Shown here in pieces: positions 24,697 to 52,117 of a DNA stretch of 64,000 bases (the first letter of the stretch is position 1; each line of letters starts with the position of its first letter). Under the pieces are notes generated by a model. It did no database searches and was not told the DNA's origin. It saw only the letters and a list, made by a program, of their open reading frames with translations. Source of the stretch: Myxococcota bacterium (GTDB taxonomy: Bacteria; Myxococcota; B64-G9); NCBI GenBank assembly GCA_035528415.1, contig DATKYQ010000044.1, positions 4,473 to 68,472 of the forward strand, in the 5' to 3' direction. The position numbers were made by a program, and so were the translations under genes.

Positions 24697-27600
24697 TCAC
24701 TGCGGATAGATGAAGGTCACGCCGTTGATGTCGGAAGTCGCCAGGGTGACGCGTGAGGGATCGCACGGGCCGATGGCGTAGTACATGGTCGCGTCCTGGA
24801 CGTTGGGATGATCGAGACCCAACAGGTGCCCCTCTTCGTGCGTGGCCACGCCCTCGATGTCGGTCAACTGGCTCGACCAGCACGAAGACGCCGCCGCCTC
24901 GGCGTTGGTGCCGAAGGGAACCCCGTCGTTGAAGACAATATCCGAGTCGGTGATGCGGTAGAAAGTGATGCCGTTGGTAACCATGCTCTGGCCGTTGGTG
25001 TAGGCGATGATCGTAGCTCCCAGTGTGCCCGTTCCCAGGTCTCCGTCGGGATCGCCGAAAGTCATGGTGTTGTGCCCGTCCCACGAGGCGAACCCGCCGC
25101 TCGACGTTGAGGCCGTCTCCTGGAAAGTGATCGTCGCCGTGGCAACGTCCTGCCAGTGTTGGAACCCGTTGCTCACGGCGCCACGTGCCTCGGCCTGGGT
25201 CAGGCCGGCCTGTGAGTTGCCGTTGACGAAGCGGAATTCGACCGGCATGTCCTGGGGAAACCACTTGCGGGCGGGATTGAGCAACTCGAAGACATCGGTA
25301 GTGCCAACCGTCTGGGAAGACGGCCCGTCGATGTTGTTGCCCTCGTTCGATTCGGCCACCGCCTGCATTGTGTCGCACTGCACGTAGGCGCTGTACTCGC
25401 CGGGATCGGCGTCGGAAAGAACCAGGTCGACGGGAATGCTGTCTCCCATTGCCAGTTCGTCGTAGCTCTGGTTCCAGTTGCCGTCCTGGCTGGCAGTGGG
25501 CGGGTTTTCGAGATCGATGTACAGATCGAGCCTGAAAGGATTCACGCAATCGACGTTGCCCTGGTTGGTAACCACGAAGTGGTAGTGAATGTCATTGCCG
25601 GCCAAGGCGGTCGTGAACTCACTGAAAGTCAGATCAACCACTCCTCCGGCTAATCTCAGCGGCAGGCTGTCGGTCCAGTGGTTCACCCCGTCTGTGATGT
25701 CGAGATCCAGCATGTACTGATAGGCATCGGCTCCAGAGGAGATCTGCACCTGGTAGCCCGAAGCCGCTTTCGTCTGGCCGGCCGCGATGGTTCCGTAACT
25801 CCCGCTGTCGTGACCAGCGACAACCGTAACATCCGCATCGGTCGAAGATATCGTGGCCGTCACGTTGGTCGCGTCCTCGGCACCATCGTTTTTCAAGGTA
25901 ATGTTCAGATTGACCGAGTCGCCCGGCGCGGGGCTGGCCGGCGTACTGGTGTGTGAATCGTAGTTCAGTTCCGTGGCCTGGCAGCCGTGCGGGCGCAGCA
26001 TGGCAGAGATTCCCTGTGCCGTCCAACTCGAGCCGCTCTGATCCCAGAGCACGCCGTTGCTCCATGACGGGTTGTTCCCGTCGTCGGCTAACACTGCGAA
26101 GTATTCCAGGGACGAAAGATCGCTTTGCGACTCGACCAGCGCGAAGAAGGTATTGCCCTGCTTGAACGTCAGCGCCGTGGGCAGGTTGAATACATGGCTT
26201 ATGGGTGTGTTGTTGCCCGGACCCGAGACGGACTCCCAGCCCGAGGTCGAGATAAGTTGATCGGGGGCGCCGGCCAGGTAGGTGTAAACCTTGACCCGGA
26301 AGTTTCTCGAGGCCGGGCTAGCCACCGTCTTGTAGAACTGCACCTCGACCCCGGTCATGTTGAAGGAAGTTGAGTCGACCGCGAAGTAGTTTCCGAACAT
26401 ATCGCCCGCCGCCAGTGGCATGACGTAGGTGGCCGTGTCGTTGTCGGCGGCCAGGGCATGGTTGTCCTGGCTGCAGCCGCTGCCCTGGACGTACAGGCCG
26501 AAGGCGTGACCCCACGAATTGGCGCCGTCCGAACTTGCCAGGCTCATGCCGTAGATGCCGAAGGCGACAGCGTCCGGCAGTACCGAGAAGTTGGGGCTTC
26601 CGGCAGCCACGCCGTCAATTGCGATGTTTCCGAACGAGGTGCTGTCCGCGGTGATTGCCATCTCGGGTTTTTCGCAAGACAACACCCCGTTGACTCCGCT
26701 TGCGGCAGCGAAGCCCCGGTTGTGCAGCGAGGCGCTGAGAGTGACTGCGCTGCCCGGCTGCGCGATGGCCGGAGTCGATGAGTGGGATTGCAATTCGAGC
26801 CACGGCCCGTCGCCGCAACCCTCGACCCTGATCTGCCAGTTGCCGTTTGCCTGGTAGTACTGGCCGTCGGTGGCGTCGTGCAGGAAGCCGCCCATGTAGG
26901 GAATCAGCGCCGGCGGGCAGAAGATGGGCAAAAAGGCGTCGCCGTTGCCCTGGTCGTCGGTCTCCTGCTCGTGAGAGTGAACCGCCACCCAGAACAACTG
27001 ACCATTGGTGAAAGATACGGGCGCAGGCAGAACGAAAGTGGCCCAGGCTATGTCCTGGGGATCGCTCTCGGGATCGCAGCCGCCCTGCCTGCCGACCGCC
27101 TGGGTGGCGCTGGCCGCGAGTTCCTGGCCAACCGCCCCGGCGTCATCGGCATAGATGTGTACCGAGTATTGACCCTGGTCTCCACCACTGTCGCAGTTGA
27201 AGTCATAGAAGGCGGCCTTGACCTGGATGACGTTATAGGAACTCGACTCGACGAAGAAGGCGTTCAGCGCCTCGTCGTCGGTGTCAATCATGTAGGCGCC
27301 GCCGAACGTGTCGTTGTCGATCACCAGTTCCGCGGCCGGATCGACGGCCGAGCAGCCCGAGCAGCCCTCGTCGGTCAGGTAGTTGCAATTGTTGTCCTTG
27401 CTATCGCCGCAAATCTCCGGCGCGCCGGGATGGCTGTTGGGATCGTTATCGTCGCAATCATCGCCCCCGCAGGCCTGGTCGCCGTACGTATCCAGGTCGA
27501 CGTCCTGGGGATCGCCGACACAGAAACCATTGGAGCAGTGGTCATTGATCATGCAAGGATCCGCATGCACACAGTTAGCGCCGTCGTCCGGCGGGAAAAC

Positions 27601-33917: not shown

Positions 33918-36900
33918 TCAGAATCCCCGGCCGCTGTTTACAAGATCTCCGCGGAACTTGGGGAACGAGCCGGCGCCGTTGAACAGCCCGGCGGCCCAGT
34001 AGTAGGAGTATATCTTGCCCTCGTGGGTGCCGACGTATACCTGTCCATAGCCGACGTCGAGCACGTTGGGTGACGAGGTTATCCAGGCCATGTCATCCGA
34101 GGAGCCGATGTAGTCGTACCACTCGAGCGTCCACTGCGGGCCATAGGCCACGATGAAGGCACCCCCGGCCCCGTCGCCGTATACAAACAGGAAGCCGCCG
34201 TCGGCGGTGATGGTGACGCTGGAGGGCGCCGGACCCATGTTGTAGTGCGAGATGGTGCTATCGGAATTTATGATGTTGAAGTTGGTATCTGATCCGCTCG
34301 AGGTGGCCATGATGACGTCGCCGCCGCCCGAGGCCGGGGCTACGGCCACCGAGCGCCCGTCTACCATCTCGGGCGTGCCCCCGGAGTCGGCCGAGATCAG
34401 CACGGGAAAGCCCGTCTGGGCCGCGCCGGTCGCCCCATTGAAGGCGTATAGGTATCCGTCGTCGCAGCCGACGTAGACCGTGCCGTCCGATCCTATACCC
34501 GGCGAGCCGTTGCAGCCGCCCGTTGGAGTGCTGTCCGACCACACCTCTGCGCCGGTCGCGGCGTTCAGGGCTACGACCTTGCCCGAACCGACACCGCCCA
34601 CGCCGAAGACGACCAGTTCCTCTCCGCCCGATCCTATGTTACCCAGCGCGGGAGAGCTGTCGATCCAGTTCGTCTCGGCGTAGGGCACCCACTTCTGACT
34701 GCCGTCCGAGTCAAGCGCCATGAATCCTCCGCCGCGGGTGCCGAAGTAGATCGATCCGTCCGCGCCCACAGCCGGGCTGGAGCGCACCTCTATGGTGTCT
34801 GCTGCCGTCCACAGAACGGTGGGGAAAGTCGCGCCCCCGGCGGCGGTCTGGTAGGCCCTCAGGCCCGAGTCGGCCGCGCCCGCGCCGGCGCTGATGCCGA
34901 CGTAGACGACCGTTCCGTCCGCCGACAGCGCCGGCGAACTCTTGTCTCCCGCGACCACGTCGAACCAGGCGTAGGAGCTGAAGTCGGGCAACACTTCATC
35001 GAAATAGTCATACGAGGGTGCAAAGACCGCTCCCGTCGCAGGATCGACCGCCGGTGTGGCATCGACTGTGGACCAGGTGTTGTACTCGGCCAGGCGCAGG
35101 CCGTAGCCCGCCCCGCCCGGCTGGCAGTAGGTACGTGTCATGAAGTCTGTCACGTTGTCGTCGGTATCCAGGTAAGTTCCGCTGTCGTTGTCGTAACGGC
35201 GCGCTAAGCAGTACATGATGTCATAGGTCGTGTCGTACTTGGCGCTGGGGGCCGGGTCGCCCTCGCCGCCCTGGGGTGTGCCCGCGCCCGTGCCCTCGTA
35301 GGCCAACCCGTCGACCACCGTCTGGCCGGCCCAGCGCACCTGTACCCCGTCGGGGCCGTTCTGCAGGTCGGCGTTGTTACTGAAAATGTCGATCAGTGAC
35401 TGGTCCCAGAGCGTGGAACTCGGGGCGATCACGAAGTGTCCGCCGTCAGGCATGGTGTAGCCGCTGAGGTCGAACTCGACGTAGTCGGTTCCGCCGTTTC
35501 CATTGACGCCGACCAGCGAGTAATGATTGAGGTTCAACCCGGCCGGGCCGAAGATCTCGATGTAGGCGTAGTCGATGTCGGGAGAGCCGTCACAGTCGTA
35601 AAGCAGCTTGCTGATAACCAGTATGGCCGGAGCCGTCGTGCTGACGCACTGGGCCTGGTGACAGACCTCTGTGCCGGCCGTGCAGCTTTGCTGGGTCTTC
35701 CACTCGAAGCAAGGATCGCTGTCGCCGTCGGCCGCGCACACCTCCACGGCGTCGTTGCCGGCATTGCATTGCAGATCATTAGGTGTGCAGTCGTCGGTGC
35801 AGATGACCACGCAGGCGCCGTTCTGGCACTCCTCATTTCCGGCGCAGGCGTTGAAGCTGCCCAGGTCCAGGCAGGGATCCGCATCGAGGTGGTCACACAG
35901 GCGCCAGCCGCCGGTGCCGTCGCAAACGGTTGTGCCGGCCTGGGAACACTCGTCGGAGCACGTCGAGGCACAGCTGCCGTTCGAGCACACGTAACCGCTC
36001 TGGCAGTCGGTGTCGCCACCCCACTCCAGGCAGGAGTCATTGTCCCAGTTGGCGCAGGTCTGCCAGGTGTCCGTATCGGCGCACTGCTTCGAGCCACTGC
36101 CCGGACACTCGTCGCTGCAGTCGTCGCGGCAATCGTTGATGGCCGGATCGCAGATCCTGCCGGCTCCGCACTCGTTGACGGCGCCCCATTCGAGACACGG
36201 GTCGGCGTTCCAGTTGCCGCAGACCATGTAGCCGGAGTTGTCTCCGTCGCAAGCCTTCGAGCCGGCTGGGCCGCACTCGTCGGAACAGTTGACAACGCAT
36301 GTTGCCGTCACCTGGTCGCAAACCTCCCAGGCCTGGCAGGGCACCACCGCCAGCCAGTCGCGGCAGGAGTCGCCGTCGCCGGACTCGCCGCACTGGTGGA
36401 AACCCGTTCCGAAGCACTCCTTCTGCCCCAGGTCGCACTCGTCGACGCAGGTGTCCGAGCAGACGCCGTCTGAACAACTCTGGCCCGAATCGCATGCAGT
36501 CGGAGTGCTCCACTCGATGCATGAATCCGAATCCCAGTCGCCGCACACCCGGTAGCCCGCGTCGCTGCCTACGTTCTGGCACATGCGGGCGCCCTGCGGA
36601 TCGCATTCGTTTTTGCAGTCTTCGACGCACTGGCCGTTTACGCATTTTTCGTCCGCATTGCAGGTGTCGATTATCCCCCACTCCAGGCAGGGGTCGGAGT
36701 CGTAGTTGGCGCACAGGTCGATCTCGGTGTCGCTGTGACATTGCCGCTGTCCCTGCTGGCACTCGTCGGAGCAGGCCGTCTCGCACTGGCCGTTGGCCGC
36801 GTTGCACACTTCCCACGACTGACAATCGGTTACTGCCGACCAGTCGAGGCACAAATCGGCGTCGTGCTGACCGCAGGTGCGGTAGCCGGCGCCGTCGCAG

Positions 36901-37643
36901 GTTCGCTGGCCCGTCGAGCACTCGTCGAGACAGTCGGGAGAACAGGTGACGCTGGATGCGTTACAGGTCTCGCCGCTCGAGCATGAATAGAAGTCGCCCC
37001 ACTCCTTGCAGCCATCTGAGTTGTAGTCGCCGCAGGTCTCGACACCGTTCTTCGGCGGCTGGGCGCAGCGGGTGGCGTCCTGGGTCGTGCACTCGTCCGA
37101 GCAGGTCGAGACGCAGTTGCCGTCAACGCAGGTCAGTCCAACCCCGCAGGTGTTCAGCGGCCCCCAGTCGAGGCAATCGTCGCCGTCGTATTCGCCGCAG
37201 ACGCGGTAACCGTTGGCACCTTCCTTGTCGCAGACCTGGGCGCCAACGCGACTGCACTCGTCCGTGCAGCTTGTCACGCACTCGCCGTCGACGCACAACT
37301 CGCCGGTTCCGCAATTCTGAGGAGCCTGCCATTCCTTGCAGGTGTCGTTGTCCGGATCGCCGCATACCTGAAACTGAGTAGTGCTGCCCAGCGCACAGCG
37401 CTTGTCACCGTCGCCGCACTCGTTGTTGCAGGCGGTGCAGTTAGCGCTTATACATTCCTGCCCGCTCAGGCAGGCATTTTCACACGAGCCGCAGTGGTTG
37501 CGATCGCTCGAGGTGTCGAGGCAAATACCGCCGCACTCTAGCTGGCCTGCCGGACACGGGTTGCTCGAACCGCCGCAGCCGGCCGAAGCCAGGGCAAGAA
37601 ACAAAGCCGAGCTAACATATAGGCAACATATACGCTTCTTCAT
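33918..37643 (-). CDS. Giant (about 1240 aa) lipoprotein: about 13 Cys-rich 48-aa repeats, lamin-tail domain (LTD), C-terminal PQQ-like beta-propeller
   Basis: ATG at 37643 with GGAGGAG RBS; lipoprotein signal MKKRICCLYVSSALFLALASAGC; repeat E-C-x-x-G-x-x-x-C-x(5-8)-CG-x-x-D-x-D-x-C-[LI]-[ED]-W-x(5)-C-x(4-5)-C-x-x-G-x-C; LTD-like block ILVISKLLYDCDGSPDIDYAYIEIFGPAG ... GGHFVIAPS; PQQ blades (GSIYFGTRGGGFMALDSDGSQKW, GTVYVGCDDGYLYAFNGATG). Confidence 0.8.
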   Translation of the reverse strand: MKKRICCLYVSSALFLALASAGCGGSSNPCPAGQLECGGICLDTSSDRNHCGSCENACLSGQECISANCTACNNECGDGDKRCALGSTTQFQVCGDPDNDTCKEWQAPQNCGTGELCVDGECVTSCTDECSRVGAQVCDKEGANGYRVCGEYDGDDCLDWGPLNTCGVGLTCVDGNCVSTCSDECTTQDATRCAQPPKNGVETCGDYNSDGCKEWGDFYSCSSGETCNASSVTCSPDCLDECSTGQRTCDGAGYRTCGQHDADLCLDWSAVTDCQSWEVCNAANGQCETACSDECQQGQRQCHSDTEIDLCANYDSDPCLEWGIIDTCNADEKCVNGQCVEDCKNECDPQGARMCQNVGSDAGYRVCGDWDSDSCIEWSTPTACDSGQSCSDGVCSDTCVDECDLGQKECFGTGFHQCGESGDGDSCRDWLAVVPCQAWEVCDQVTATCVVNCSDECGPAGSKACDGDNSGYMVCGNWNADPCLEWGAVNECGAGRICDPAINDCRDDCSDECPGSGSKQCADTDTWQTCANWDNDSCLEWGGDTDCQSGYVCSNGSCASTCSDECSQAGTTVCDGTGGWRLCDHLDADPCLDLGSFNACAGNEECQNGACVVICTDDCTPNDLQCNAGNDAVEVCAADGDSDPCFEWKTQQSCTAGTEVCHQAQCVSTTAPAILVISKLLYDCDGSPDIDYAYIEIFGPAGLNLNHYSLVGVNGNGGTDYVEFDLSGYTMPDGGHFVIAPSSTLWDQSLIDIFSNNADLQNGPDGVQVRWAGQTVVDGLAYEGTGAGTPQGGEGDPAPSAKYDTTYDIMYCLARRYDNDSGTYLDTDDNVTDFMTRTYCQPGGAGYGLRLAEYNTWSTVDATPAVDPATGAVFAPSYDYFDEVLPDFSSYAWFDVVAGDKSSPALSADGTVVYVGISAGAGAADSGLRAYQTAAGGATFPTVLWTAADTIEVRSSPAVGADGSIYFGTRGGGFMALDSDGSQKWVPYAETNWIDSSPALGNIGSGGEELVVFGVGGVGSGKVVALNAATGAEVWSDSTPTGGCNGSPGIGSDGTVYVGCDDGYLYAFNGATGAAQTGFPVLISADSGGTPEMVDGRSVAVAPASGGGDVIMATSSGSDTNFNIINSDSTISHYNMGPAPSSVTITADGGFLFVYGDGAGGAFIVAYGPQWTLEWYDYIGSSDDMAWITSSPNVLDVGYGQVYVGTHEGKIYSYYWAAGLFNGAGSFPKFRGDLVNSGRGF

Positions 37644-37806
37644 TCTCTCCTCCAAAGAAATGGCAAGATCAACATGTTTCTGGACCATCTAGACTCGGCC
37701 ATCCGACCCCGGCCGGTCAAGTAAAAAAAGCCGCCGGGAATCTTGAAAGCGGCTCGCAGAACGTGGTAGCTTCCGTCACCCAAACGATTTTTTCCGAGGA
37801 GGTGCG

Positions 37807-39939
37807 ATGGACCGCTCAGCCGAGACGCAAGCTAAGCTATTGCCCGCCAATGCCTATACCAAGCTCGAGCCAGGCCAGGAATACCGGCCCATCGTCCCTG
37901 CCGCGGACACGCGCGCCGAGGTGACCCCCTGGTCGATCGGCACGGGGCTGGCGATGGTAATCATCTTCACCGCCGCCTGCGTCTACATCGCGCTCAGGGC
38001 CGGCAACGGCATCGAGGCATCCATTCCAATCGCCATTCTGGCCATCTTTTTCGGCAAGATGAGAAAGATAAAGAGCACCATTCTCGAAAACGTGATGGTG
38101 CAGAGCGTGGGCCAGGCATCGGGGGTAGTGGCCGCCGGGGCCACTTTCGTTATCCCGGCTCTGTACATCAACCAGCTCGACGTCGCCTGGTGGGAAATCT
38201 TCTTGGCCAGCGCCGTGGGCGGCTTTTTGGGAATTGTGCTGATCATTCCGCTTCGCAAGTACTTCGTAAAGGACCTGCACGGCGACCTTCCTTTCCCCGA
38301 GGCCACCGCCATCAACGAGGTACTGGTCACGGGCGAGAGCTCGGCTGCCGGGGCGGGCAAGATTCTGCTGATGGCCTTCCTGTTGGGAGCCGGCTACGAC
38401 TTCATGGTCGAGGCATTCCGCCTCTGGAACCCGGACATTTCTACAACAAACATTCTGGGCTCGTTCGGCCAGGCCATGGGCGGCGTGCGGATCGAGCTGC
38501 AAATTTCCGGCCTGGCGGCCCTGTTCGGTCTGGGCTACATCATCGGAATCCGCTACGCATCCATAATCGCCGCAGGATCGGTTTTGGCAATGCTGGTGCT
38601 GGTGCCGCTGGTGTATCTTTTCGGCAAGAACCTGGGCTCTTTTTCTTATGCCAGCCAGGTCTTCGATCTCGGAAACATGAACGCCAATCAGATCTTCGGC
38701 AACTTCGTGAAACCGATAGGCATCGGGGCTATCGCCATCAGCGGACTGGTGGGTATCATCCGCATGGGCAAGATCGTCATGAGTTCCGTTACGCTGGGTT
38801 TCAAGGGCTTTTCCAAGAAAGGGCGGGCCGAGGCCGAGGCCGAGAGAACTCAGCTCGACATGGCCCCGCGAAACGTCTTGCTTATCGAACTCGGCTCGGC
38901 TCTGGCCATGGGTGTGCTCTTTTTCGTGGTGGCCAACATCACCACGGTCGGCGGTGAATCTTACGGGCTGGGCCAGAGCCTGGTCTTCGCCGTGGTGGGC
39001 ATGCTGGCCGGGTTTCTGCTGTCTTTCCTGTTCACACCGGTGGCAGCCCAGGCGATCGCCATCGTGGGCGTCAACCCGGTCTCGGGCATGACGCTGATCA
39101 CCGTGACTCTGGCCATCGGAGCGCTGATCATGGTGGGTCTGGCCGGTAAAGCCGGCATGATCATCGCCCTGGTGGTCGGTTGCGCCGTCTGCACGGCGCT
39201 ATCGACCTCGGGGGCGCTTATTTCCGATTTCAAGATTGGCTACTGGATCGGCGCCACCCCGCGTAACCAGCAGCGCTGGAAATTCCTGGGCGTGCTGGTG
39301 GCCGCGCTGGTGGTGGCGGTCGTCATTCCCTTGATGGATCAGGCTTACCACTTCATTGACCCCCTTACCGGCCTTTCGAACAATCAACTTCCCGCGCCGC
39401 AGGCAAACATGATGGCCGCGGTCTCGCGCGGCCTGATGGACAACCCGGCCAACCAGCCCTGGCTGCTCTACGGCCTGGGCGGCATCGTGGCGATCATGCT
39501 GCTGATGTCGGGAGTGCCGATGTTGGCCTTCGCCCTGGGAATGTACCTGCCGATCTCGATCAACATGGCCGTGCTGGCCGGGGCGGTCTGCGCCTGGGCG
39601 ATATCCCGCACCGGAGGAAGCGAACGGGTGCGCAAGGCACGCGCCGAGCAGGGCACGCTGATAGCCTCGGGCATGATGGCCGGCGCGGCCATCTTCGGTA
39701 TCATCACCGCCGCCATGCGTCTGACGGACCTGGGCGCGCCAATCCAGTACACCAGTGTCGGCGTAGCCTGCCTGGTCAAGAACGGGGTGCTGCACGAGAA
39801 AGCCGCAACCTGGTTTTCGGGACCCCCGGGCCAACTAATCAGCGTGGGCATGTTGTTGATGCTATCGTTCGCCTGCTACGGGCTCGCCCGCATGGGAGCC
39901 AAATGGGTACTGGGCAGGCCTGGCAAAACAGAAACATGA
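37807..39939 (+). CDS. OPT-family oligopeptide transporter
   Basis: 710 aa; about 16 TM segments; N-terminal architecture (YRPIVPAADTRAEVTPWSIGTGLAMVIIFTAACVYIALRAGNGIEASIP) typical of bacterial OPT proteins. Confidence 0.8.
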   Translation: MDRSAETQAKLLPANAYTKLEPGQEYRPIVPAADTRAEVTPWSIGTGLAMVIIFTAACVYIALRAGNGIEASIPIAILAIFFGKMRKIKSTILENVMVQSVGQASGVVAAGATFVIPALYINQLDVAWWEIFLASAVGGFLGIVLIIPLRKYFVKDLHGDLPFPEATAINEVLVTGESSAAGAGKILLMAFLLGAGYDFMVEAFRLWNPDISTTNILGSFGQAMGGVRIELQISGLAALFGLGYIIGIRYASIIAAGSVLAMLVLVPLVYLFGKNLGSFSYASQVFDLGNMNANQIFGNFVKPIGIGAIAISGLVGIIRMGKIVMSSVTLGFKGFSKKGRAEAEAERTQLDMAPRNVLLIELGSALAMGVLFFVVANITTVGGESYGLGQSLVFAVVGMLAGFLLSFLFTPVAAQAIAIVGVNPVSGMTLITVTLAIGALIMVGLAGKAGMIIALVVGCAVCTALSTSGALISDFKIGYWIGATPRNQQRWKFLGVLVAALVVAVVIPLMDQAYHFIDPLTGLSNNQLPAPQANMMAAVSRGLMDNPANQPWLLYGLGGIVAIMLLMSGVPMLAFALGMYLPISINMAVLAGAVCAWAISRTGGSERVRKARAEQGTLIASGMMAGAAIFGIITAAMRLTDLGAPIQYTSVGVACLVKNGVLHEKAATWFSGPPGQLISVGMLLMLSFACYGLARMGAKWVLGRPGKTET

Positions 39940-41159
39940 GCATCCTGACCCTGAACTGCGGATCTTCCTCGGTCAAGTACTCGCTCTTCGACACCCGCGG
40001 GCATGATTTCACCTGCCGCGGCCTGGTGGAGCGGGTAGGCATGGGCAAGAGCTTTCTCAGACAACAATATGCCGGCCGGGAGACTCGAATAGATCGAGAT
40101 TGCCGTGATCATGCCGCTGCTGTCGGCCTGGTTCTCGATATTCTCACAACCGGCGAAGACTCGCCCATCCGCGCCGTCGGTCACCGGGTGGTCCACGGCG
40201 GCGAAGAGTTCGCAGCCAGCGCCTTGGTGACCCCCGAGATGCTGAGCACCGTAGAGCGCGTGGCCGAGTTGGCCCCGCTGCACAACCCGCCCAACCTGGC
40301 CGGCATTCGGGCGGCCGGGGCTCTGTTGCCGGGCATTCCACAGGTGGCCGTCTTCGATACGGCTTTTCACCAGCGCATGCCGCCGGAAGCCTACATATAT
40401 CCGCTACCCTACGAGTGGTACGAAAAATACGGCATCCGGCGCTACGGCTTCCACGGCACCAGCCACCTGTACGTCGCGGCCCGGGCGGCGGTCATGCTCG
40501 GCCGCCCGCTCGAAGAACTGAAGCTAGTCACGCTTCACATCGGCAACGGCGCAAGCGCGGCGGCGGTGCTGGACGGTCGTTCGGTGGACACTTCCATGGG
40601 CTTCACGCCGCTGGAGGGACTGGTCATGGGCACCCGTTGCGGCTGGATCGACCCGGCCATAGTAACCTACGTCATGCAGCGCGAAGATCTCGACGCCGAC
40701 GAGATGGACCGGCTGCTCAACAAACGCTCCGGCCTGCTGGGCCTGAGCGGCCGCTTCACCGACCGGCGCGATATCCTGGAAGGCGCGGACCGCGGAGACG
40801 AACGTTGTGAGCTGGCGCTACAGATAGAGTGCCGGGCCATCACTAAAATCATCGGAAGCTATGCGGCGGTCATGGGCGGGCTCGACGGCGTGGTCTTCAC
40901 CGCCGGGGTGGGCGAAAACGCGGCGGCCATCAGGGCCCGCGCCCTCGAAGGCCTCAGGTTCCTGGGCATCCGACTCGATCCCGCAAGGAACGAGCGCGCG
41001 CTCGGCGGCGCGCGCGAAGAGTTCATATCGAGCGACGCCAGCCCGGTCGCAGCACTGGTTATCCCTACCAATGAAGAGCTGGTAATTGCCGAGGACACTC
41101 AGGCCATTCTCGAAGGCCGCCTCGAAGATCCCGACTTCAGCTACTCCTTCGCCCGGTAA
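39936..41159 (+). CDS. ackA: Acetate kinase
   Basis: ATG overlaps OPT stop (ATGA); MSILTLNCGSSSVKYSLFD N-terminal motif; VVHGG, HLGNGAS, TSMGFTP, FTAGVGEN landmarks. Confidence 0.9.
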   Translation: MSILTLNCGSSSVKYSLFDTRGHDFTCRGLVERVGMGKSFLRQQYAGRETRIDRDCRDHAAAVGLVLDILTTGEDSPIRAVGHRVVHGGEEFAASALVTPEMLSTVERVAELAPLHNPPNLAGIRAAGALLPGIPQVAVFDTAFHQRMPPEAYIYPLPYEWYEKYGIRRYGFHGTSHLYVAARAAVMLGRPLEELKLVTLHIGNGASAAAVLDGRSVDTSMGFTPLEGLVMGTRCGWIDPAIVTYVMQREDLDADEMDRLLNKRSGLLGLSGRFTDRRDILEGADRGDERCELALQIECRAITKIIGSYAAVMGGLDGVVFTAGVGENAAAIRARALEGLRFLGIRLDPARNERALGGAREEFISSDASPVAALVIPTNEELVIAEDTQAILEGRLEDPDFSYSFAR

Positions 41160-43170
41160 TCTTTGCCAGCGCCGCCTGAAAATCCTTGATGGTCGCCGGC
41201 TTGGCTATGAAGTCATCCATTCCCGCCGCCAGGCAGCGCTCGCGGTCTTCTTCGAGCGAGTGGGCGGTCATGGCAATCATGTACACGTGGCGATCGCCGC
41301 CGGCTTCATGGCGGCGAATCTCTTTCGTGGCATCGAAGCCGTCGACGCCGGGCATCTGGCAATCCATGAAAATCGCGTCGTAATCTCCGCGCGCGGCCAT
41401 CTCGACCGCCTGCCGACCGTCGGCGGCCAGCTCGATCTCGCAGCCCAGCCTCCCGAGAATGGTCAGAGACACTTCCTGGCTGACGTCGTTGTCTTCCGCC
41501 ACCAGCACTTTCAACCCAGTTGGTACGCTTTTTTCGGTTCGCTCTTCCGGAACGGGCTCGTCTTCACACGGGGACTCGACTACAGAAAGATCCAGAACGA
41601 AGAAGAACTCCGAACCCTGCTCCGGCCGGCTTTTCACCGATAACTCACCGCCCATCATCAGGACGAGCTGCTTGCTGATGGCCAGGCCCAGTCCGCAACC
41701 CGCGTAGCGGCGCGAGGCCGATGAATCGACCTGGGTGAACTTGTCGAAGATGCCGTCGAGCTTCTCGCCGGGAATCCCGATTCCTGTGTCATGAACCGAG
41801 AAACGCAACCGGGCCATGTCTCCTTTTCGTCCCTCGCTCTCGACTGCCAGCCTGACCCGCCCGCGCTCGGTGAACTTCAGGGCATTGTCTACCAGGTTGA
41901 CCAGTACCCGTCTGATGCGTCCGGCGTCGCCGACGAGCCGGTGAGGCGCCAGGGGAGCATAGCGCATGGACAGATCGAGACCTTTCTCAATCGCCAAGGG
42001 CGATAGCATCTCGACAACGTCGGCCGTCAGCGCCCGCATATCCAGCGGGGCCGGATCGAGCGTCAGACGTCCCGCCTCGATCCTCGAGAAATCCAGAAGA
42101 TCGTTGATGACGTTCAAGAGCACCTCGGCCGAGCGCGTGATCGTCTCAACATAGCGCCTCTGCTTGTCATCGAGACCACCGTCATCGAGCAGCGAGGCGA
42201 CTCCGATGATGCCGGCCAAGGGAGTGCGAAGTTCGTGACCCATGTTGGCCAGGAACTCGCTCTTGGCCCGGTTGGCCGCCTCGGCATCTTCCTTGGCTGC
42301 CTGGAGAGCACTCAGGACCTTGCGGCGTTCGGTTACGTCGCGCGCGATCACCAGCACCGCCGGCCGGCCGCCGTGCTTGATGGCCGTATCGGAGATCTCG
42401 AGATCGCGCATCTGGCCGTTGCGATCTCTAAATCTCACCTCGGCCTTGTCCTGCCTGCGCTCACCCGAGAGAAGCGCGCTTACGCGGGCCAGGCTTCCTT
42501 GCTTCTCGTCTTCTCCAAGGTAATCTATGTAGTCGCTCTCGATCACCTCGGCCGGCCGCCTGCCCCCCATTTTCGCGAGGGCCCGGTTCAGGAAGATCAC
42601 CTTGCCGTCCTGCAGGATGGCCACCCCGTCGCTGGCCGCCTCGACCAGCGCCAGGTAAAGGGCCTCGGATTCCTCGCTGCGCACCAGCAGATCTCTCTGC
42701 GCCCGAACCTTTTGCGTGCGCAGGCGATGGATCTCGAAGACACGGTCCAGCAAGCGCAGGAGAGTACGGCTCTCGATCGGCTTGCGCAGGTAGTGAAAGG
42801 CGCCCTTCTCCATGGCCGCCACGGCCGAGTCGAGATCGGCATGCGCGGTCATGACGATGCATAAGCAATCTGGATGGCGCCCCTTGAACTCCGATAGAAA
42901 ATCGGTGCCCAGCCCGTCCGGCAGACGCAAGTCGATAAGCGCCACCTGGAATTCGCGCTTGGCTGCAATAGCTCGCGCCTCTGCACAGTTTCCGACGAAG
43001 GTTACCCGGCAGCCTTCCTTTTCCAGAATGTCAGCGAGCAACCCGCAAAGAGCCGCATCGTCGTCCACCACCAGGATGGTTCTTTCGTTCGAGTCCGCCA
43101 AACTCCCTCCAAAAAGCATCCTATCCACAAAACAGGACCCATTGATATGACACCCGCACACAGGAATCAA
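41137..43170 (-). CDS. Hybrid sensor histidine kinase: REC - PAS - HisKA - HATPase_c - REC
   Basis: N-terminal receiver (ILVVDDDAAL ... ALIDLRLPDGLG ... FHYLRKP); PAS-like middle; H-box ANMGHELRTPL; N, G1 and G2 boxes (DTGIGIP, GCGLGLAIS); C-terminal receiver (LVAEDNDVSQ ... IFMDCQMPGVDG ... IAKP); true start may be the internal ATG around 43122. Confidence 0.8.
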   Translation of the reverse strand: MIPVCGCHINGSCFVDRMLFGGSLADSNERTILVVDDDAALCGLLADILEKEGCRVTFVGNCAEARAIAAKREFQVALIDLRLPDGLGTDFLSEFKGRHPDCLCIVMTAHADLDSAVAAMEKGAFHYLRKPIESRTLLRLLDRVFEIHRLRTQKVRAQRDLLVRSEESEALYLALVEAASDGVAILQDGKVIFLNRALAKMGGRRPAEVIESDYIDYLGEDEKQGSLARVSALLSGERRQDKAEVRFRDRNGQMRDLEISDTAIKHGGRPAVLVIARDVTERRKVLSALQAAKEDAEAANRAKSEFLANMGHELRTPLAGIIGVASLLDDGGLDDKQRRYVETITRSAEVLLNVINDLLDFSRIEAGRLTLDPAPLDMRALTADVVEMLSPLAIEKGLDLSMRYAPLAPHRLVGDAGRIRRVLVNLVDNALKFTERGRVRLAVESEGRKGDMARLRFSVHDTGIGIPGEKLDGIFDKFTQVDSSASRRYAGCGLGLAISKQLVLMMGGELSVKSRPEQGSEFFFVLDLSVVESPCEDEPVPEERTEKSVPTGLKVLVAEDNDVSQEVSLTILGRLGCEIELAADGRQAVEMAARGDYDAIFMDCQMPGVDGFDATKEIRRHEAGGDRHVYMIAMTAHSLEEDRERCLAAGMDDFIAKPATIKDFQAALAKITGRRSS

Positions 43171-43221
43171 GCAACAGGTTTACCGATTGCCGCTTGCATG
43201 CCTGTCTGCTACGCTTCAACA

Positions 43222-44295
43222 ATGATTGCTGTTATCGATAGGCGGCCGAGATGGAAGCGCCTGATGGCTATAGTTCTCGGCGCTGTGGTCACACTGGCTC
43301 TTGTTTTCGCGGGAGTGCTGATGTTGATCGAATGGAAGCCCGGGCCAGTCGAGGACACGCCGGTATCCGGAGGCGGCGACCGGGCACTGAAGCCGCCTGT
43401 GTCGCTGGATCTATTGTCTTTCAACATAGGCTACGGAGGGCTTGGCCGGCAGGCCGACTTCTTCATGGACGGCGGCGAACAGGTGCGCCCTGAGCGGGAT
43501 GCCGTCGAGGCCAACCTCGCGGCCTTCGGGGATGTCTTGCGCTCTCATCCGGCCGACATCGTCTTGCTCCAGGAGGTCGACCGCGACTCCTCTCGAAGCT
43601 ACGGCATCGACCAGGCCGCGGCCCTGGCCGGCGTGCTGCCGGGCTTTGCCCGCTCGATGGCGCTCAACTTCAAGGTGCCCTGGATTCCCTACCCCGTGTT
43701 GCGCCCGCTGGGCAGGGTTGAAAGCGGCCTGCTCTCTTTGAGTCGCTACCCGTTAGGCTCGGCCAAGCGCTTACAACTTCCCGGCTACTACCCCTGGCCG
43801 GTGCGCGTCTTTCATCTCAAGCGCTGTCTGCACCTGTTACGCTTCCCGGCCCCGGACGGCAAGGACTGGGTGATAATCAACCTGCACCTGTCGGCTTTCG
43901 ACAAGGGCGGCCGCCTGCGGCAGGAGCAGATGGTCTACCTGAAGAAACTGGTTATGGATCTGACAGGCGCCGGGCATCACCTGATCGCCGGGGGCGATTG
44001 GAACCAGGCCTTTCCCGGGATCGACGGCGGCACTTTTGCGCACGGCGATCCCGTTCCAGGCTGGTTCCAGCAGATGGATCCAGCCTGGCTCCCAGCCGGC
44101 TTCCGGTGGGCCTACGACCGCATGCAACCCTCGCTGCGCGCCATCAACAAACCCTACACACCAGGCGAGAACTTCCTGACAATAGTAGACGGCTTCTTAG
44201 TCGGCCCCGGAATAGAAGTGCTCGAAGTACACACGACCAACCTCGGCTTTGCCAACAGCGACCACAACCCGGTGCTGCTGCGGGTGAGGCTCTAA
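43222..44295 (+). CDS. Endonuclease/exonuclease/phosphatase (EEP) family protein, N-terminally membrane-anchored
   Basis: TM MAIVLGAVVTLALVFAGVLMLI; EEP landmarks LLQEVD, NLHLSAFD, GDWN, SDHNPVLL. Confidence 0.7.
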   Translation: MIAVIDRRPRWKRLMAIVLGAVVTLALVFAGVLMLIEWKPGPVEDTPVSGGGDRALKPPVSLDLLSFNIGYGGLGRQADFFMDGGEQVRPERDAVEANLAAFGDVLRSHPADIVLLQEVDRDSSRSYGIDQAAALAGVLPGFARSMALNFKVPWIPYPVLRPLGRVESGLLSLSRYPLGSAKRLQLPGYYPWPVRVFHLKRCLHLLRFPAPDGKDWVIINLHLSAFDKGGRLRQEQMVYLKKLVMDLTGAGHHLIAGGDWNQAFPGIDGGTFAHGDPVPGWFQQMDPAWLPAGFRWAYDRMQPSLRAINKPYTPGENFLTIVDGFLVGPGIEVLEVHTTNLGFANSDHNPVLLRVRL

Positions 44296-45322: not shown

Positions 45323-46111
45323 CTACTTTTCAGACGCCTTCAGATCCTGGTACATCTCGTAGGCCTGTCCGGCCGGCAGGTTCTTGTGAACAACGGCGCG
45401 CACCGCCTTGATCATGGCCACCGGGGAATCTGACTGGAAGACGTTGCGGCCCATGTCCACCCCGGCGGCGCCGTCGCCCACGGCGTTGGCGGCCATTTCT
45501 AAAGCATCCTTCTCGGGCATCTTCTTGCCGCCGGCGATCACCACCGGAACCGGAGTGGCGGCAATGATTTTCGAAAAATTCTCGCAGTAGTATGTTTTCA
45601 CCATGTGGCTGCCGATCTCGACGGCCATCCGGCAACACAGCCCCAGATAGCGGGCATCCCGGGCCATCTCGCGGCCCACCGCGGTCACGGTCATGACGGG
45701 GATGCCGTACTTGTTGCCCCAGTCGGCGAGCTTGCCCAGGTTGATAAGCGTCTGGTGCTCGCCCGGTGTGCCGACGAAGATGGACAGGGTGATGCCGCAG
45801 ACATTGAGCCTGATTGCATCTTCAATGTCGCAGGTGAGGCCTTCGTTGGAAAGTTCTGTGAGAATGCTGTTGCCCCCCGAGACGCGCAACATGATCGGCA
45901 CGTCGCTGTCGGGGTCGACACAGATGCGCAGCATTCCCCTTGTGATCATCAGGGTGTCGGCGTACGGCAGTAAGGGGTCGATCGTGCTCTTGAGATCCCT
46001 AAGGCCGGTGGTGGGTCCCTGAAAGTAGCCGTGGTCCACGGCCAGCATGACGATCCGTCCGGTATCGGGTTTGATCATCCGCGCCATTCTGTTCTTCATT
46101 CCCCATTCCAT
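45323..46111 (-). CDS. Class I DhnA/LsrF-type aldolase (fructose-bisphosphate aldolase family)
   Basis: 262 aa; blocks IVMLAVDHGY, ITRGM, MLRVSGG, HMVKTYY resemble archaeal-type class I FBP aldolase / LsrF. Confidence 0.7.
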   Translation of the reverse strand: MEWGMKNRMARMIKPDTGRIVMLAVDHGYFQGPTTGLRDLKSTIDPLLPYADTLMITRGMLRICVDPDSDVPIMLRVSGGNSILTELSNEGLTCDIEDAIRLNVCGITLSIFVGTPGEHQTLINLGKLADWGNKYGIPVMTVTAVGREMARDARYLGLCCRMAVEIGSHMVKTYYCENFSKIIAATPVPVVIAGGKKMPEKDALEMAANAVGDGAAGVDMGRNVFQSDSPVAMIKAVRAVVHKNLPAGQAYEMYQDLKASEK

Positions 46112-46206
46112 GTTCTTCCTCCTTCATGGTTCGAGAGTGCAATCTTATGCAACGCAGTATGGAAGTCAAGCTGCTCAGCGAACGACGATCCGCCTCTCGT
46201 TGACAC

Positions 46207-46218
46207 CCCGATATCGGG
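46207..46218. promoter_or_regulatory. 12-bp perfect palindrome CCCGATATCGGG in the 190-bp gap upstream of the aldolase/ADH genes
   Basis: Perfect inverted repeat inside the only sizeable intergenic gap of the BMC region; candidate operator; function not demonstrable from sequence. Confidence 0.2.
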
Positions 46219-46302
46219 ACTTAGATTGTTCTACAGGAAAGACGGGAGGTCGCCATGGCTGGCATAAAAAACCATTCTGGCCTGCCCGAATTGCATCGCC
46301 CG

Positions 46303-47748
46303 TCAGTTCCCCTTCTGGCCGGCAGACTGGCCGGTGGCGATGGCCACCGAGGCCGAGGCGCCGATACGCGTGGCGCCGGCCGCCACCATGGCCTCGGCCG
46401 TCTGACGATCCTTGATGCCTCCCGAGGCCTTGACGCCCATCTCGGGCCCGACCGTCTCGCGCATCAGGGCAATGTCCTCGACTGTGGCCCCGCCCCCGCC
46501 GAAGCCGGTCGAGGTCTTTACGAAATTCGCCCCGGCCATCTTGGCCAGCAGGCAGGCCTTGACGATCTCCTCCTTGGCGAGCAGGGCGGTCTCGAGGATC
46601 ACCTTGACCAGCGCCTGGCCGCGGGAGGCGTTGACGACTCCCTCGATGTCCCGGCGCACCAGTTCGTCGTCACCCGATTTCAGGGCCCCGACGTTGATGA
46701 CCATGTCGATCTCTCTGGCCCCGTTGGCGATGGCGTCGCGTGTCTCCATGGCCTTGGACGTCGGTGTCGTCGCGCCCAGCGGAAAGCCGATCACTGTGCA
46801 AACCTTGACGTCGCTGCCGGCCAGCAACCGGGCGCACAAGGCCACCCGACCGGGATTGACGCACACCGAGGCGAAGTGGAACTGCCTGGCCTCGGCGCAC
46901 AATTTATGAAACTGATCTTCGGTGGCGTCCGGCTTGAGCAGGGTGTGATCGATCATGCGGCTGATGTCGCCTGAGACAGGCTGCGCCCCAATCGAGGATC
47001 CAACACGCGCGGCGCCGCCTTCTACCAGCTTGCTGACCGCCTCTGGGTTGTTCTCGATGCACAGCCCGCAAGAGCTGCACTCGCCGATGGTCGCCAGCGT
47101 GCAAGCCGGGTTGGGCTTTTGCTCGCCCGTAACGGGATCGACGATTGTTCCCGGGCCGGTCATTTTATCGACGTCGCACAGGCACACGCCCAGCGCCGCA
47201 AGCTGTTTCTCGATGTCGGCGATCTTTTGCCTGACGGCGGCCGGCGCCGCGGCCGGCTCGATCTCGGCGGCAAACAGCGAGTCACGCGCGGCCACCACCG
47301 TGATTCCGCGCATCAGTCCATAGATTGCCAAGATGCAAACCAGGCTGTCGGGCAGCATGGTCAGCAGCTTCGAAGCTGCGTTGAGCGACATGTTCGGCAG
47401 GTAGATTACACCGACGCCGTCGAGCAACTTCCAGACGTCGCCCTCGGTGAGAACCTCGGCTTCGGGGGCGGCCCGGCGTACGGCCGGCACGCCGACAATC
47501 TTCTGCGCCGAGGAAGAGAGAACCACCTTGCAGTCCTCGCAGCAGTCGCAGATCTTGCCTACTTGCGAAAGCGCCTCTGTGAGCCTGCGGTTGCCGCCGG
47601 TGAGCAGGACCAGCACGCGTTTGCCCTTGGGCGTCGCGGGCGGTATCCAGCCGCTGTCCATTCTCTTCTCGCCTTCCGTGGACGGGGACGGCCCCAGCCG
47701 TTTGATCACTTCCGCGGATATCCTGCGAACCAGATCGTCGGAATCCAT
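46303..47748 (-). CDS. deoC: Fusion protein: N-terminal Cys-rich domain of unknown function with putative encapsulation peptide + C-terminal deoxyribose-phosphate aldolase
   Basis: C-terminal half has DERA landmarks ([28 protein letters not shown] with Schiff-base Lys, VKASGGI); N-terminal 250 aa start with the amphipathic [15 protein letters not shown] and contain CDCCEDC and CSSCGLC. Confidence 0.8.
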
Positions 47749-47889
47749 AGGTGTCCTCCACTACGGGCGGACCCGGGGCGTTCCCGGGCCCGGGCTCCGC
47801 ATGGGACGAAGTTATCCCAGGCTCGGCCGTAACCCTCACACTGCGAGGGCCGCTGAGAAACGCGGAAACCACGGCACGAGCGGCGCCGA
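47749..47889. promoter_or_regulatory. GC-rich palindromic intergenic segment between the BMC-H stop and the deoC-fusion start
   Basis: Nested GC palindromes (cccggg, cgggcccg) able to form a stable RNA stem-loop on the minus-strand transcript; no trailing U-tract, so not a canonical intrinsic terminator. Confidence 0.25.
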
Positions 47890-48177
47890 TTACTTGCCGG
47901 CGGTCTTGGGCAGGATGCCTTCCACGTCGCCGTGCGGACGCGGGATGACATGCACCGACACCAACTCGCCGACCTTCTTGGCCGCCACCGCGCCGGCTTC
48001 CACCGCGGCCTTGACCGCGCCGACGTCGCCGCGCACCATGACGGTCACGAACCCGCCGCCGATGAACTCCTTGCCTACCAGGGACACCTTAGCTGCCTTG
48101 ACCATTGCGTCGGCCGCCTCGATTGCGCCCACCAAGCCTTTGGTCTCGATCATTCCCAGCGCTTCTTTCGACTCCAC
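47890..48177 (-). CDS. BMC shell hexamer protein (BMC-H, PduA/EutM/CcmK family)
   Basis: 95 aa; GTG start; canonical Pfam00936 sequence [26 protein letters not shown] ... VHVIPRPH. Confidence 0.95.
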
Positions 48178-48199
48178 GTCAAACCTCCGTCTGTTGAAC

Positions 48200-48502
48200 T
48201 TAGGGATTCCAGATCTTCACACGGCCGCCGGGTTCTTCCTCGACGGCCAACTCATCCACGTATCCAACTATGGTCGCATCCACCGGGGGCTTGTCGCCTA
48301 AAGCGATGGCCGCGTCCCTCTTCATGACCAGGTAAACCACATCGCCGGGCCCGGCGCAACGAATCCCGTCGACTGCGACGAACGCTTCGCCCGAGGGCCG
48401 CAGGTTTTGGTCGAGCCCCTGAACGACCAGAAGCCTGAGACCCTCGAGTTCGGGGTCCTTGATCGTCGCCACTACGCGCCCGATGACTTTTCCCAAGCGC
48501 AT
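48200..48502 (-). CDS. BMC vertex pentamer protein (BMC-P, EutN/PduN/CcmL family), copy 1
   Basis: 100 aa from ATG 48502: [28 protein letters not shown] ... [10 protein letters not shown]; the track ORF start at 48712 overlaps rpiB and is rejected. Confidence 0.9.
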
Positions 48503-48509
48503 ACCTTGC

Positions 48510-48977
48510 CTACCCTTCCCGAACGCGATTCTCGACCGCGGTGATCTTGTCGAGCCTTTGCTGGTGCCGTCCACCGGCATAGTCGGTCTCAAGCCAGAGC
48601 TTGGCCAGATCCTTGGCCAGGCCCGGGCCGAGAACTTGTCCGCCCAGGCAGAGCACGTTGGCGTCGTTGTGCACCCGGCTGCTCTTGACACCGAAGGCAT
48701 CGTATCCGGCAATCGCCCTGATACCCGGCAGCTTGTTGGCCACGATGGCGCTGGCCTGCCCTATGCCGTCAATCATGATGCCCCGGCAATCCGCGGAAAC
48801 CCGCGAAGCTCCGGCCACGGCCTGCGCCACCAAAAAGGCGAAATCGGGATAATCGCAAGCATCCTTCCCGTGACAGCCGAAGTCGCGCACCTCGTGCCCA
48901 AGTTCCACCAGAAATGTCTTCAGCGACTCTTTCAGTTGGTAGCCACCGTGGTCGCTGCCGATAAAAATCTTCATCAC
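48510..48977 (-). CDS. rpiB: Ribose-5-phosphate isomerase B (RpiB/LacAB family)
   Basis: MMKIFIGSDHGGYQLKESL ... GIMIDGIGQASAIVANK ... NDANVLCLGG landmarks; 155 aa. Confidence 0.9.
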   Translation of the reverse strand: MMKIFIGSDHGGYQLKESLKTFLVELGHEVRDFGCHGKDACDYPDFAFLVAQAVAGASRVSADCRGIMIDGIGQASAIVANKLPGIRAIAGYDAFGVKSSRVHNDANVLCLGGQVLGPGLAKDLAKLWLETDYAGGRHQQRLDKITAVENRVREG

Positions 48978-49843
48978 GCCTTCTCCCGGGCCGTAATGGC
49001 GATGATTTCACTCAACGCTTCGGGATTCAAGCCCGCTCCTCCCACCAGGAAACCGTCGCAGTCCGGCATTCGCGCAAGATCCCCGGCGCTGCCGACACCG
49101 ACGCTGCCCCCGTAGAGCAGGCGCGACCGTTCGGCCCAGGCATGTGAAAACAACTCGCCCAACCTGTCGCGGATGAAAACCAGGGCCTCCTGGACCTGGG
49201 AGGGCGAGGCGACCAGTCCGCTGCCGATGGCCCAGATCGGCTCGTAGGCCACTACGATCTCCTGCGGATCGGGTGCCGGCTGCCCCAGCCCGGAAAGCGC
49301 CAGCGTGAGCTGGGCGCGCAGCACGCGGAAGGTCGCGCCCCGCTCGCGCTCTTCAAGCCGCTCGCCGACGCACAGAACAGGAGTCAGGCCTGCGGACAGC
49401 GCGGCGAGCAGCTTGCGGCGCACCAGTTCGTCGTCCTCGCCGGCCGCCCGGCGCTCGGAATGTCCCACGATCACGTAGCTCGCGCCGGCATCCTTTATCA
49501 TCTCGGCGCTGTGCTCCCCTGTATGCGCGCCGGAGTGTTCCGGGTGCAGATCCTGGGCGCCCAGGCTGACATGCGTGCCGTTGGAGAGCGCGCCGCGCAA
49601 CACCGGCAGCAGCACCAGCGGCGGGCACAACAGCGTGTCCACTCCGCTGTCCGCGTGAGGATTCAGTTTGGCCGCGTAGCGCCGCGCGTCCTCGGCCAGC
49701 AAGTTCATTTTCCAGTTGGCGGCGATCAGCGGCCGGCGACCGCCGCTGGCGGATAACCGATGTATATCTGCATCGCCCGCGGCCATGGTCTCGTAGACCA
49801 CCTGGCGCACCACCCGTTCCACTCTGTCCCGCAGGTCGCTCAC
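48974..49843 (-). CDS. tpiA: Triosephosphate isomerase with N-terminal extension of about 30 aa (candidate encapsulation peptide)
   Basis: IAANWKMN, VIVGHSERR, AYEPIWAIGSG, GGSV TIM landmarks; GTG at 49843 (GGGGAGGG RBS 9 nt upstream; overlaps the upstream BMC-P stop as GTGA) gives MSDLRDRVERVVRQVVYETMAAGDADIHRLSASGGRRPL before the IAANWKMN core; alternative start is the internal ATG around 49786. Confidence 0.8.
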   Translation of the reverse strand: MSDLRDRVERVVRQVVYETMAAGDADIHRLSASGGRRPLIAANWKMNLLAEDARRYAAKLNPHADSGVDTLLCPPLVLLPVLRGALSNGTHVSLGAQDLHPEHSGAHTGEHSAEMIKDAGASYVIVGHSERRAAGEDDELVRRKLLAALSAGLTPVLCVGERLEERERGATFRVLRAQLTLALSGLGQPAPDPQEIVVAYEPIWAIGSGLVASPSQVQEALVFIRDRLGELFSHAWAERSRLLYGGSVGVGSAGDLARMPDCDGFLVGGAGLNPEALSEIIAITAREKA

Positions 49844-50157: not shown

Positions 50158-50186
50158 GTCAATCTCCTTATCCGTCCATCAGGCGA

Positions 50187-50750: not shown

Positions 50751-50753
50751 GGT

Positions 50754-52106: not shown

Positions 52107-52117
52107 GCCAGCTCCTC

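Follow-up and report, generated by a model that had tools for sequence, protein, structure and literature searches.

Architecture of a stalked myxococcotal lipoprotein

The envelope protein TraA of Myxococcus xanthus combines a variable head domain with Cys-rich repeats and a MYXO-CTERM surface-sorting tag (PMC13184517). Lamin-tail domains (LTDs) are typical of secreted nucleases such as ExeM, in which deletion of the LTD lowers DNase activity in vitro (PMC6085458). BamB, a lipoprotein of the outer membrane, folds as a PQQ-like propeller of 8 blades. The gene analysed here, at positions 33918..37643 (minus strand) of a 64,000-nucleotide stretch of contig DATKYQ010000044.1 from a Myxococcota genome (hereafter the window), encodes a giant protein that recalls each of these systems in one respect. 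It is built from a lipid anchor, a Cys-rich stalk of ~650 aa and a C-terminal head composed of an LTD-like β-sandwich and a PQQ-like β-propeller, and may take part in extracellular protein foraging.

The likeness to TraA lies in the general layout, as both are Myxococcota envelope proteins with tandem Cys-rich repeats placed between an anchor and a β-rich recognition head. In contrast, the polarity of the window protein is reversed, with an N-terminal lipobox anchor and a C-terminal head, its repeats belong to another family with no match to TIGR02232, no TraB-like gene lies in the neighbourhood, and an LTD plus propeller takes the place of the polymorphic variable domain of TraA. The propeller displays the same fold and sequence family as 3HXJ, YxaL, BamB and the designed Cake8, which are stand-alone or directly lipid-anchored, whereas that of the window protein ends a stalk of ~650 aa and is predicted to pack against the LTD. 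Similarly, ExeM and other bacterial LTD proteins contain a lamin-tail-type β-sandwich within a secreted or envelope protein, although the window polypeptide has no nuclease or phosphatase domain and is strongly acidic, and its LTD subtype falls below the Pfam gathering cutoff and always follows a Cys-rich array. CysRRep, described in a preprint by Daugavet et al. (10.64898/2026.06.07.730663), is also a Cys-rich repeat that has Myxococcota matches and precedes functional domains in secreted proteins. It was rejected as the identity of the window repeat because its spacing, Cx6-9Cx5-7Cx8-11Cx7-8CC, ends in a CC doublet, whereas the window unit has no CC and its 8 Cys are separately spaced.

The complete coding sequence (1241 aa plus stop) lies in an open reading frame that spans 33918..37688 on the minus strand. 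Translation probably starts at the ATG at 37643, in agreement with the N-termini of the orthologs, and a Shine-Dalgarno sequence read as GGAGGAG (37647..37653, minus strand) is located 3 nt upstream. The strong ribosome-binding site, the lipoprotein signal and dN/dS values of 0.11–0.21 over the full gene against two close relatives establish that the gene is genuine. In a promoter and terminator scan of 33–38 kb of the window, sites were no more frequent than in shuffled sequence. Residues 1–23 (37575..37643, minus strand) comprise the signal peptide and a lipobox-like match, MKKRICCLYVSSALFLALASAG followed by Cys. The signal sequence runs from MKKR to ALFLALASAG immediately before the lipobox Cys, Cys-23, and residues +2 to +4 are GGS. 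The window protein and 18 of 21 orthologs fit a PROSITE-like lipobox pattern. A basic n-region, a hydrophobic core and a lipobox with an invariant Cys, as expected of a signal peptidase II substrate, are all found in the window protein, whose assignment as a bacterial lipoprotein, with lipidation predicted, stands. An earlier, sequence-only reading of the window had placed a giant Cys-rich lipoprotein at these coordinates and on this strand; the reading frame, the Shine-Dalgarno sequence and the ortholog N-termini confirm the placement, and the lipoprotein description holds as a prediction from sequence. The product contains 104 Cys.

The Cys-rich stalk

The stalk opens with an N-terminal 8-Cys module (residues 24–71; 37431..37574, minus strand) that gives sub-threshold matches to NCBIfam NF041328 (MXAN_6577-like; 30.7 bits against a cutoff of 100) and, in ortholog P0018, to Pfam Stig1 (22.6 bits against 24.1). 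The module thus appears to resemble STIG1/MXAN_6577-type modules while falling short of membership, and is distinct from the repeat unit that follows, whose hidden Markov model (HMM) scores -7.3 on it. Residues 72–669 (35637..37430, minus strand) form an array of 11 tandem units of 52–57 aa with 8 Cys each, in place of the ~13 units of 48 aa and 6 Cys counted originally. The unit consensus is CxDECxxxGxxxCx(5-9)CGxxDxDxC[LI][ED]Wx(5)CxxGExCxxGxC, and the C-[LI]-[ED]-W core recognized in the sequence-only reading recurs as C-[LIKRF]-[ED]-[WL] in 11/11 units. When the repeats are aligned, a check that had been suggested for them, the units display 29–47% identity to one another and all 8 Cys superimpose. 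Nearly all the array Cys are invariant across 21 orthologs, and each of the others is retained in 90% or more of them; the D-x-D preceding the fifth Cys is invariant in most units, as is the Trp in several. The identity between units, the aligned and ortholog-conserved Cys and the 2,222 sequence clusters matched by the unit profile (see below) place the array, as judged from its sequence, far beyond chance.

The stalk carries a net charge of -87 and has the potential to form 44 disulfides. In the AlphaFold2 model of residues 24–345 (pLDDT 86.7) short β-hairpins are the sole secondary structure, and the low pTM of 0.37 is as would be expected for a rod. Residues 72–669 match no Pfam or NCBIfam family at E<=1, including TIGR02232, Dicty_CTDC, EGF and Stig1, the repeat unit has no match among Protein Data Bank (PDB) sequences, and a Foldseek search of the Cys-rich model against the PDB returned nothing at E<0.001. 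Weak local Foldseek matches in BFVD to the Cys-rich region of baculovirus and nudivirus VP91, with TM-scores <0.2, were not taken as homology.

Fibrillin-type cbEGF rods offer an analogy, as they are also extended arrays of tandem small disulfide-rich hairpin modules with an acidic motif of the D-x-D-x-C type; the cbEGF consensus includes an acidic motif before a Cys. The analogy does not extend to sequence or to Foldseek matches, and the window unit has 8 Cys in 54 aa where EGF has 6 Cys in ~40 aa. The D-x-D-x-C motif in each window unit may bind Ca2+. The stalk is proposed to serve as a fixed-length spacer, rigid, polyanionic and disulfide-stapled, which would keep the head at a distance from the cell surface.

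The LTD-propeller head

The segment connecting the array to the propeller (residues 670–845; 35109..35636, minus strand) is a divergent LTD-like domain, a predicted β-sandwich, with a C-terminal extension and an invariant Cys pair, C812/C840. Only when scanned alone does the window segment match PF00932, with 22 bits (E 2.2e-4) over model positions 3–107 of 109, below the gathering score of 34.3. Two orthologs come closer (P0011, 27.2 bits; P0018, 28.0 bits), and none of the orthologs scored attains the cutoff. A match at E<=0.01 is nevertheless present in 13/15 ortholog segments, the best at 1.4e-7, and hhalign aligns the ortholog profile A4 to the first LTD copy of P0079 and P0107, which pass the threshold at 64.7 and 52.1 bits, respectively, with 99.9% probability and E ~1e-33. 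These two lines of evidence support the assignment of the segment to a divergent LTD subtype, as far as sequence profiles can define one. The region is all-β in the AlphaFold2 model, whose Foldseek matches are dominated by the propeller. A sequence profile search of the PDB with the LTD region found no lamin and produced chance YgfZ matches, and hhalign against a human lamin A tail sequence gave no signal (0.3% probability). The domain is acidic, with 2 Lys/Arg against 17 Asp/Glu and a net charge of -15.

The β-propeller (~residues 861–1241; 33921..35063, minus strand) contains a second invariant pair, C1044/C1060. Its membership in Pfam PQQ_2 (PF13360) is clear, as the score of 66.5 bits, spread over 3 stretches (E 3.6e-18), lies far above the gathering threshold of 27.6. 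The ortholog profile matches the designed Cake, Bagel and Scone propellers, 3HXJ, YxaL and BamB in the PDB, with 3HXJ at 1e-50 and quinoprotein dehydrogenases at just 1e-4 to 1e-8. The AlphaFold2 model of residues 600–1241 (pLDDT 85.9, pTM 0.83) has as its best Foldseek match the 8-bladed designed Cake8 (6TJG; TM-score 0.85, rmsd 3.3 Å), followed by YxaL (7DXN; 0.72) and BamB (~0.7, E ~1e-9 to 1e-10), and on this model the propeller most likely has 8 blades. Quinoprotein dehydrogenase propellers comprise roughly 550–600 aa. That of the window protein has ~380 aa and its sole cysteines are C1044 and C1060, with no vicinal Cys-Cys. Because of the missing vicinal pair, the short length and the best matches to non-catalytic propellers, it is predicted to be a non-catalytic propeller of the BamB/YxaL/3HXJ type. 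The net charge of the propeller is -28.

The sequence-only reading had named an LTD-like domain and a PQQ propeller after the array and had proposed domain searches as the means of refuting it. Both assignments are supported by those searches, the LTD at a sub-threshold score and the propeller as a fold rather than as a cofactor enzyme. The combination had also been called unusual, in line with the observation that PF00932 and PQQ_2 are not listed together for any of the 120 best-ranked relatives that the head has beyond the ortholog group. The LTD-propeller head thus appears confined to the ortholog group of the window protein.

The repeat unit as a domain family

The 11 window units were combined into a profile, which was searched against 1.84 billion representatives of clusters at 50% identity. 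It matched 2,222 clusters at E<=1e-3 and 896 at E<=1e-10, with 3–17 copies per protein among the matches listed. In 10 other carriers of the repeat, no Pfam or NCBIfam model covers the unit at E<=0.001. The unit, with its 54 aa and 8 Cys, defines a large domain family that present domain libraries lack. Of 230 repeat-bearing proteins that start with Met, 208 have an array beginning in the first 150 residues, 153 have a lipobox-like signal and 167 continue for 200 aa or more on the C-terminal side of the array. The domains distal to the array vary and include β-helix, PKD, PPC, LTD or propeller. This order of anchor, array and variable head across the family is the main evidence that the array constitutes a membrane-adjacent stalk. 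With a name and a solved structure for the unit, thousands of giant envelope proteins now listed as 'hypothetical' could be better annotated, and the way in which anaerobes construct long extracellular spacers would become visible.

Carriers of the unit are mostly metagenome-assembled genomes (MAGs) of Myxococcota, together with some DPANN archaea and bacteria of the candidate phyla radiation (CPR). The low-GC carriers include a Woesearchaeota protein (10 units, on a contig of 40% GC), an Iainarchaeum protein (7 units) and a Patescibacteria protein (6 units). The loci assigned to DPANN or CPR are L039 1-2955, L049 9314-12427 and L055 1638-6743, and also L058, L064, L066, L068, L070, L072 and L074. 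The unit therefore appears to cross the boundary between bacteria and archaea, in lineages with episymbiotic lifestyles, with MAG contamination as a possible source of these assignments.

Orthologs and evolution of the protein

Full-length orthologs of the window protein, ~1220–1350 aa long and 38–90% identical, occur in ~16 MAGs at species level, which bear the labels Myxococcales, Myxococcota or Deltaproteobacteria, and are annotated solely as hypothetical, 'PQQ-binding-like' or 'BamB'. The number of units is 11 in 14/20 orthologs (range 10–14), and in comparisons with distant orthologs the positional counterpart is the best match of a window unit in 40 of 66 cases, where ~9% is expected by chance. 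Both observations indicate an old and stable array whose length is probably constrained. With dN/dS values of 0.09–0.26 over all domains against the two close relatives, every domain is, as judged from these ratios, under purifying selection. The head, at 0.09–0.15, has an identity across orthologs similar to that of the other domains. Strong acidity marks all domains throughout the orthologs. A preprint on Myxococcota from Zodletone mentions neither the locus nor microcompartments or oligopeptide transport.

Identity to the nearest relative, locus L006, is mosaic. It amounts to 94–99% over the neighbouring transporter gene and most of the target gene, but falls to 76–86% in units 8–11 and to 80% where the signal peptide and N-terminal module are encoded. 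In these divergent segments (window 35593-36492 and 37393-37692) the more distant L007 is closer, at 86–89%, and dS varies between 0.05 and 0.61 among the domains of the gene. The mosaic identity to L006 and L007 and the uneven dS suggest intragenic recombination in the stalk, as read from these alignments.

Conserved gene neighbours

A divergent intergenic region of 163 bp (37644..37806) is common to the target gene and to an operon on the plus strand that encodes an OPT oligopeptide transporter (37807-39939; TIGR00733 equivalog, 230 bits against a cutoff of 182.5) and acetate kinase (ackA, 39903-41159), the latter overlapping the OPT gene; at ortholog loci the two are supported by the Pfam families OPT and Acetate_kinase. 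The divergent OPT gene is adjacent to the target in 13/16 distinct ortholog loci and ackA is present in 11/16. On the other side, a giant metzincin lipoprotein of 1649 aa (24697-29646, minus strand), with Dicty_CTDC repeats, CARDB and Peptidase_M10 identified by Pfam, is translationally coupled to p184 (29643-30197, minus strand), a secreted protein of 184 aa for which no family match was obtained. This pair occurs downstream in 9 of the 14 ortholog loci with enough flank, and directly adjoins the target ortholog in L008 and L014. The metzincin lipoprotein shares with the window protein a lipobox, a long Cys-rich stalk and a C-terminal head. In contrast, its Dicty_CTDC-type repeats are unrelated to the target unit and its head, composed of CARDB and Peptidase_M10, is catalytic.

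A third Cys-rich giant lipoprotein of 1310 aa, with 97 Cys and the lipobox LLSAC, is encoded at 56216-60148 (plus strand). Its repeats are of the CxDGNxCTxxDxC type and metzincin-like, its large C-terminal region is Cys-poor, and it has no significant Pfam match. The sequence-only reading had correctly separated the target repeat from that of the metzincin protein, as the unit HMM matches no other open reading frame of the window, but had grouped the three giants as paralogs. This grouping fails, because the other two carry an unrelated repeat of the CxDxNxCT or Dicty_CTDC type in which the unit HMM finds nothing; the three are architectural analogues instead.

The stop codon of p184 overlaps the start of the metzincin gene at 29643-29646. 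In every metzincin-bearing locus p184 lies immediately upstream of the metzincin, at 47–92% identity, and it could be a chaperone, an inhibitor or a partner of the protease. In the window, L001 and L007, lysA and an aspartate kinase gene (30360-33061 in the window) part the target and its downstream membrane-protein gene from the p184-metzincin pair; short remnants of them are left in L006 (16046-16134), and they are absent from L008 and L014, where the genes of the two giants are nearly contiguous.

The membrane-protein gene downstream of the target (33145..33852, minus strand) encodes a polytopic protein of 235 aa, homologous to the N-terminal part of a 540–584-aa gene that follows the orthologs at distant loci. 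It matches L005:11678-13372 by BLASTP (E 4e-11) and 4/16 distinct ortholog loci by tblastn (L001, L006, L012 and L016), with no Pfam or NCBIfam match. The close relatives L001 (14568-15236) and L007 have an extra 222-aa gene with a weak outer-membrane-protein β-barrel signal that is lacking in the window. Considered as a counterpart of the conserved membrane protein, this gene proved unrelated to it.

Proposed role and alternative explanations

Since the gene is conserved beside OPT, ackA and the stalked metzincin, a role in foraging is the most likely one. The lipid anchor would reside in the outer membrane, and the head at the end of the stalk would be a non-enzymatic module that binds a ligand or partner and so captures or positions an extracellular polymeric substrate (protein or cell debris) or the protease itself. 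In such a surface foraging system the peptide products would enter through OPT and then be fermented to acetate. The window protein would accordingly be a fixed-length stalk-and-head surface protein that works with the stalked metzincin and OPT to forage for extracellular protein, a proposal drawn from domain content, models and gene order that we consider about evenly poised between right and wrong.

Several observations weigh against it. Every carrier is an uncultured MAG, and sequence alone cannot separate a surface from a periplasmic location. OPT is lacking beside 3/16 orthologs and the metzincin beside 5/14, and synteny is in any case linkage and not proof of a common pathway. Furthermore, the carriers appear to be anaerobes, to judge from their sediment sources and fermentative neighbours, a setting in which 44 disulfides are unexplained.

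A broader version is offered tentatively, as a possibility for which doubts prevail: the 54-aa unit would be an undescribed extracellular rod domain, possibly stabilized by Ca2+, that serves as a membrane-proximal spacer in uncultured Myxococcota, DPANN and CPR, the fixed length of 11 units would set the distance of the head from the outer membrane, and the protein would form with the stalked metzincin and OPT an unrecognised surface apparatus by which anaerobic myxobacteria of sediments forage for protein. The feeding of uncultured anaerobic Myxococcota, which are common in sediments, is poorly known, and the locus suggests a toolkit of giant disulfide-stapled stalk-and-head lipoproteins (a binder and a metzincin), peptide uptake and acetate fermentation. 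The stalk domain is uncatalogued and the LTD-propeller head appears particular to the ortholog group, whereas stalked surface proteins with modular heads are already well known. The present value of the locus is as a lead for annotation and domain discovery, with no mechanistic surprise.

The protein could instead be a TraA-like adhesin or recognition receptor for cell-cell or prey contact, whose head binds the surface of another cell, be it kin, prey or host. The layout of TraA, with its variable head, Cys-rich repeats and sorting tag, invites this comparison, as does the mosaic divergence of the stalk between close strains, with units 8–11 at 76–86% against 94–99% elsewhere. The unit is found, moreover, in DPANN and CPR episymbiont lineages, and such episymbionts depend on attachment to other cells. 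The head is not hypervariable, however, as its low dN/dS and its ordinary identity indicate, the repeat is not of the TraA type in NCBIfam, and what is conserved nearby is a transporter and a protease, with no gene for a TraB-like partner. An adhesin is thus unlikely.

Capture of extracellular DNA is a less probable function still. Here the LTD, a domain at home in secreted nucleases and needed for full ExeM activity, would tether DNA for a separate nuclease, and the products would feed a deoxyribose-phosphate microcompartment and ackA. A candidate nuclease is the membrane-anchored EEP family protein encoded at 43147-44295 (plus strand; PF03372, 42 bits), a homologue of which is encoded upstream of the target gene, no more than 10 kb away, in 7/16 ortholog loci, and a bacterial-microcompartment locus of the SPU (sugar-phosphate) type (PMC11585597) that includes a deoC equivalog is situated at 45.3–55.4 kb. 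Against this, the extreme acidity of every ortholog argues against direct DNA binding, neither the PDB nor NCBIfam assigns the EEP protein to a nuclease or phosphatase subtype, and the linkage of EEP and DeoC to the target is weaker than that of OPT and the metzincin.

It is very improbable that the protein is the BamB of this lineage, a periplasmic assembly factor with a large insertion. Some sources do name the orthologs BamB, BamB is itself a lipid-anchored propeller of 8 blades, and its structures match the model, as noted above. In contrast, the BamB equivalog models fail widely (TIGR03300, 32.3 bits against 285.2; NF008351, 25.3 against 423), 3HXJ, Cake and YxaL resemble the propeller more closely than BamB does, the ~650-aa stalk with its LTD has no counterpart in BamB, and there is no synteny with bam genes at ortholog loci. 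Finally, a PQQ-dependent quinoprotein dehydrogenase on a stalk, as the family name PQQ_2 and the weak profile matches to alcohol and methanol dehydrogenases might suggest, can be practically dismissed given the short propeller, the missing vicinal Cys-Cys and the best matches to non-catalytic proteins.

Other features of the window

A further giant open reading frame at 14844-18917 (plus strand) encodes 4 Cys, with signals of DUF6599 and of Reg_prop, the propeller of two-component regulators, and stands outside any Cys-repeat set. The microcompartment locus occupies 45323-55413, mostly on the minus strand, and comprises shell and enzyme genes. The shell genes are BMC-H (47890-48177), a tandem BMC-T (50187-50750) and three EutN-like genes. 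The deoC equivalog (46303-47748, 280 bits) has an N-terminal extension, and the other enzymes are a second DeoC/LacD aldolase, an RpiB-like protein, TIM, an RnfC-like protein, an aldehyde dehydrogenase and PduL (246 bits). Acetate kinase is encoded apart from this locus, in the OPT operon beside the target gene.

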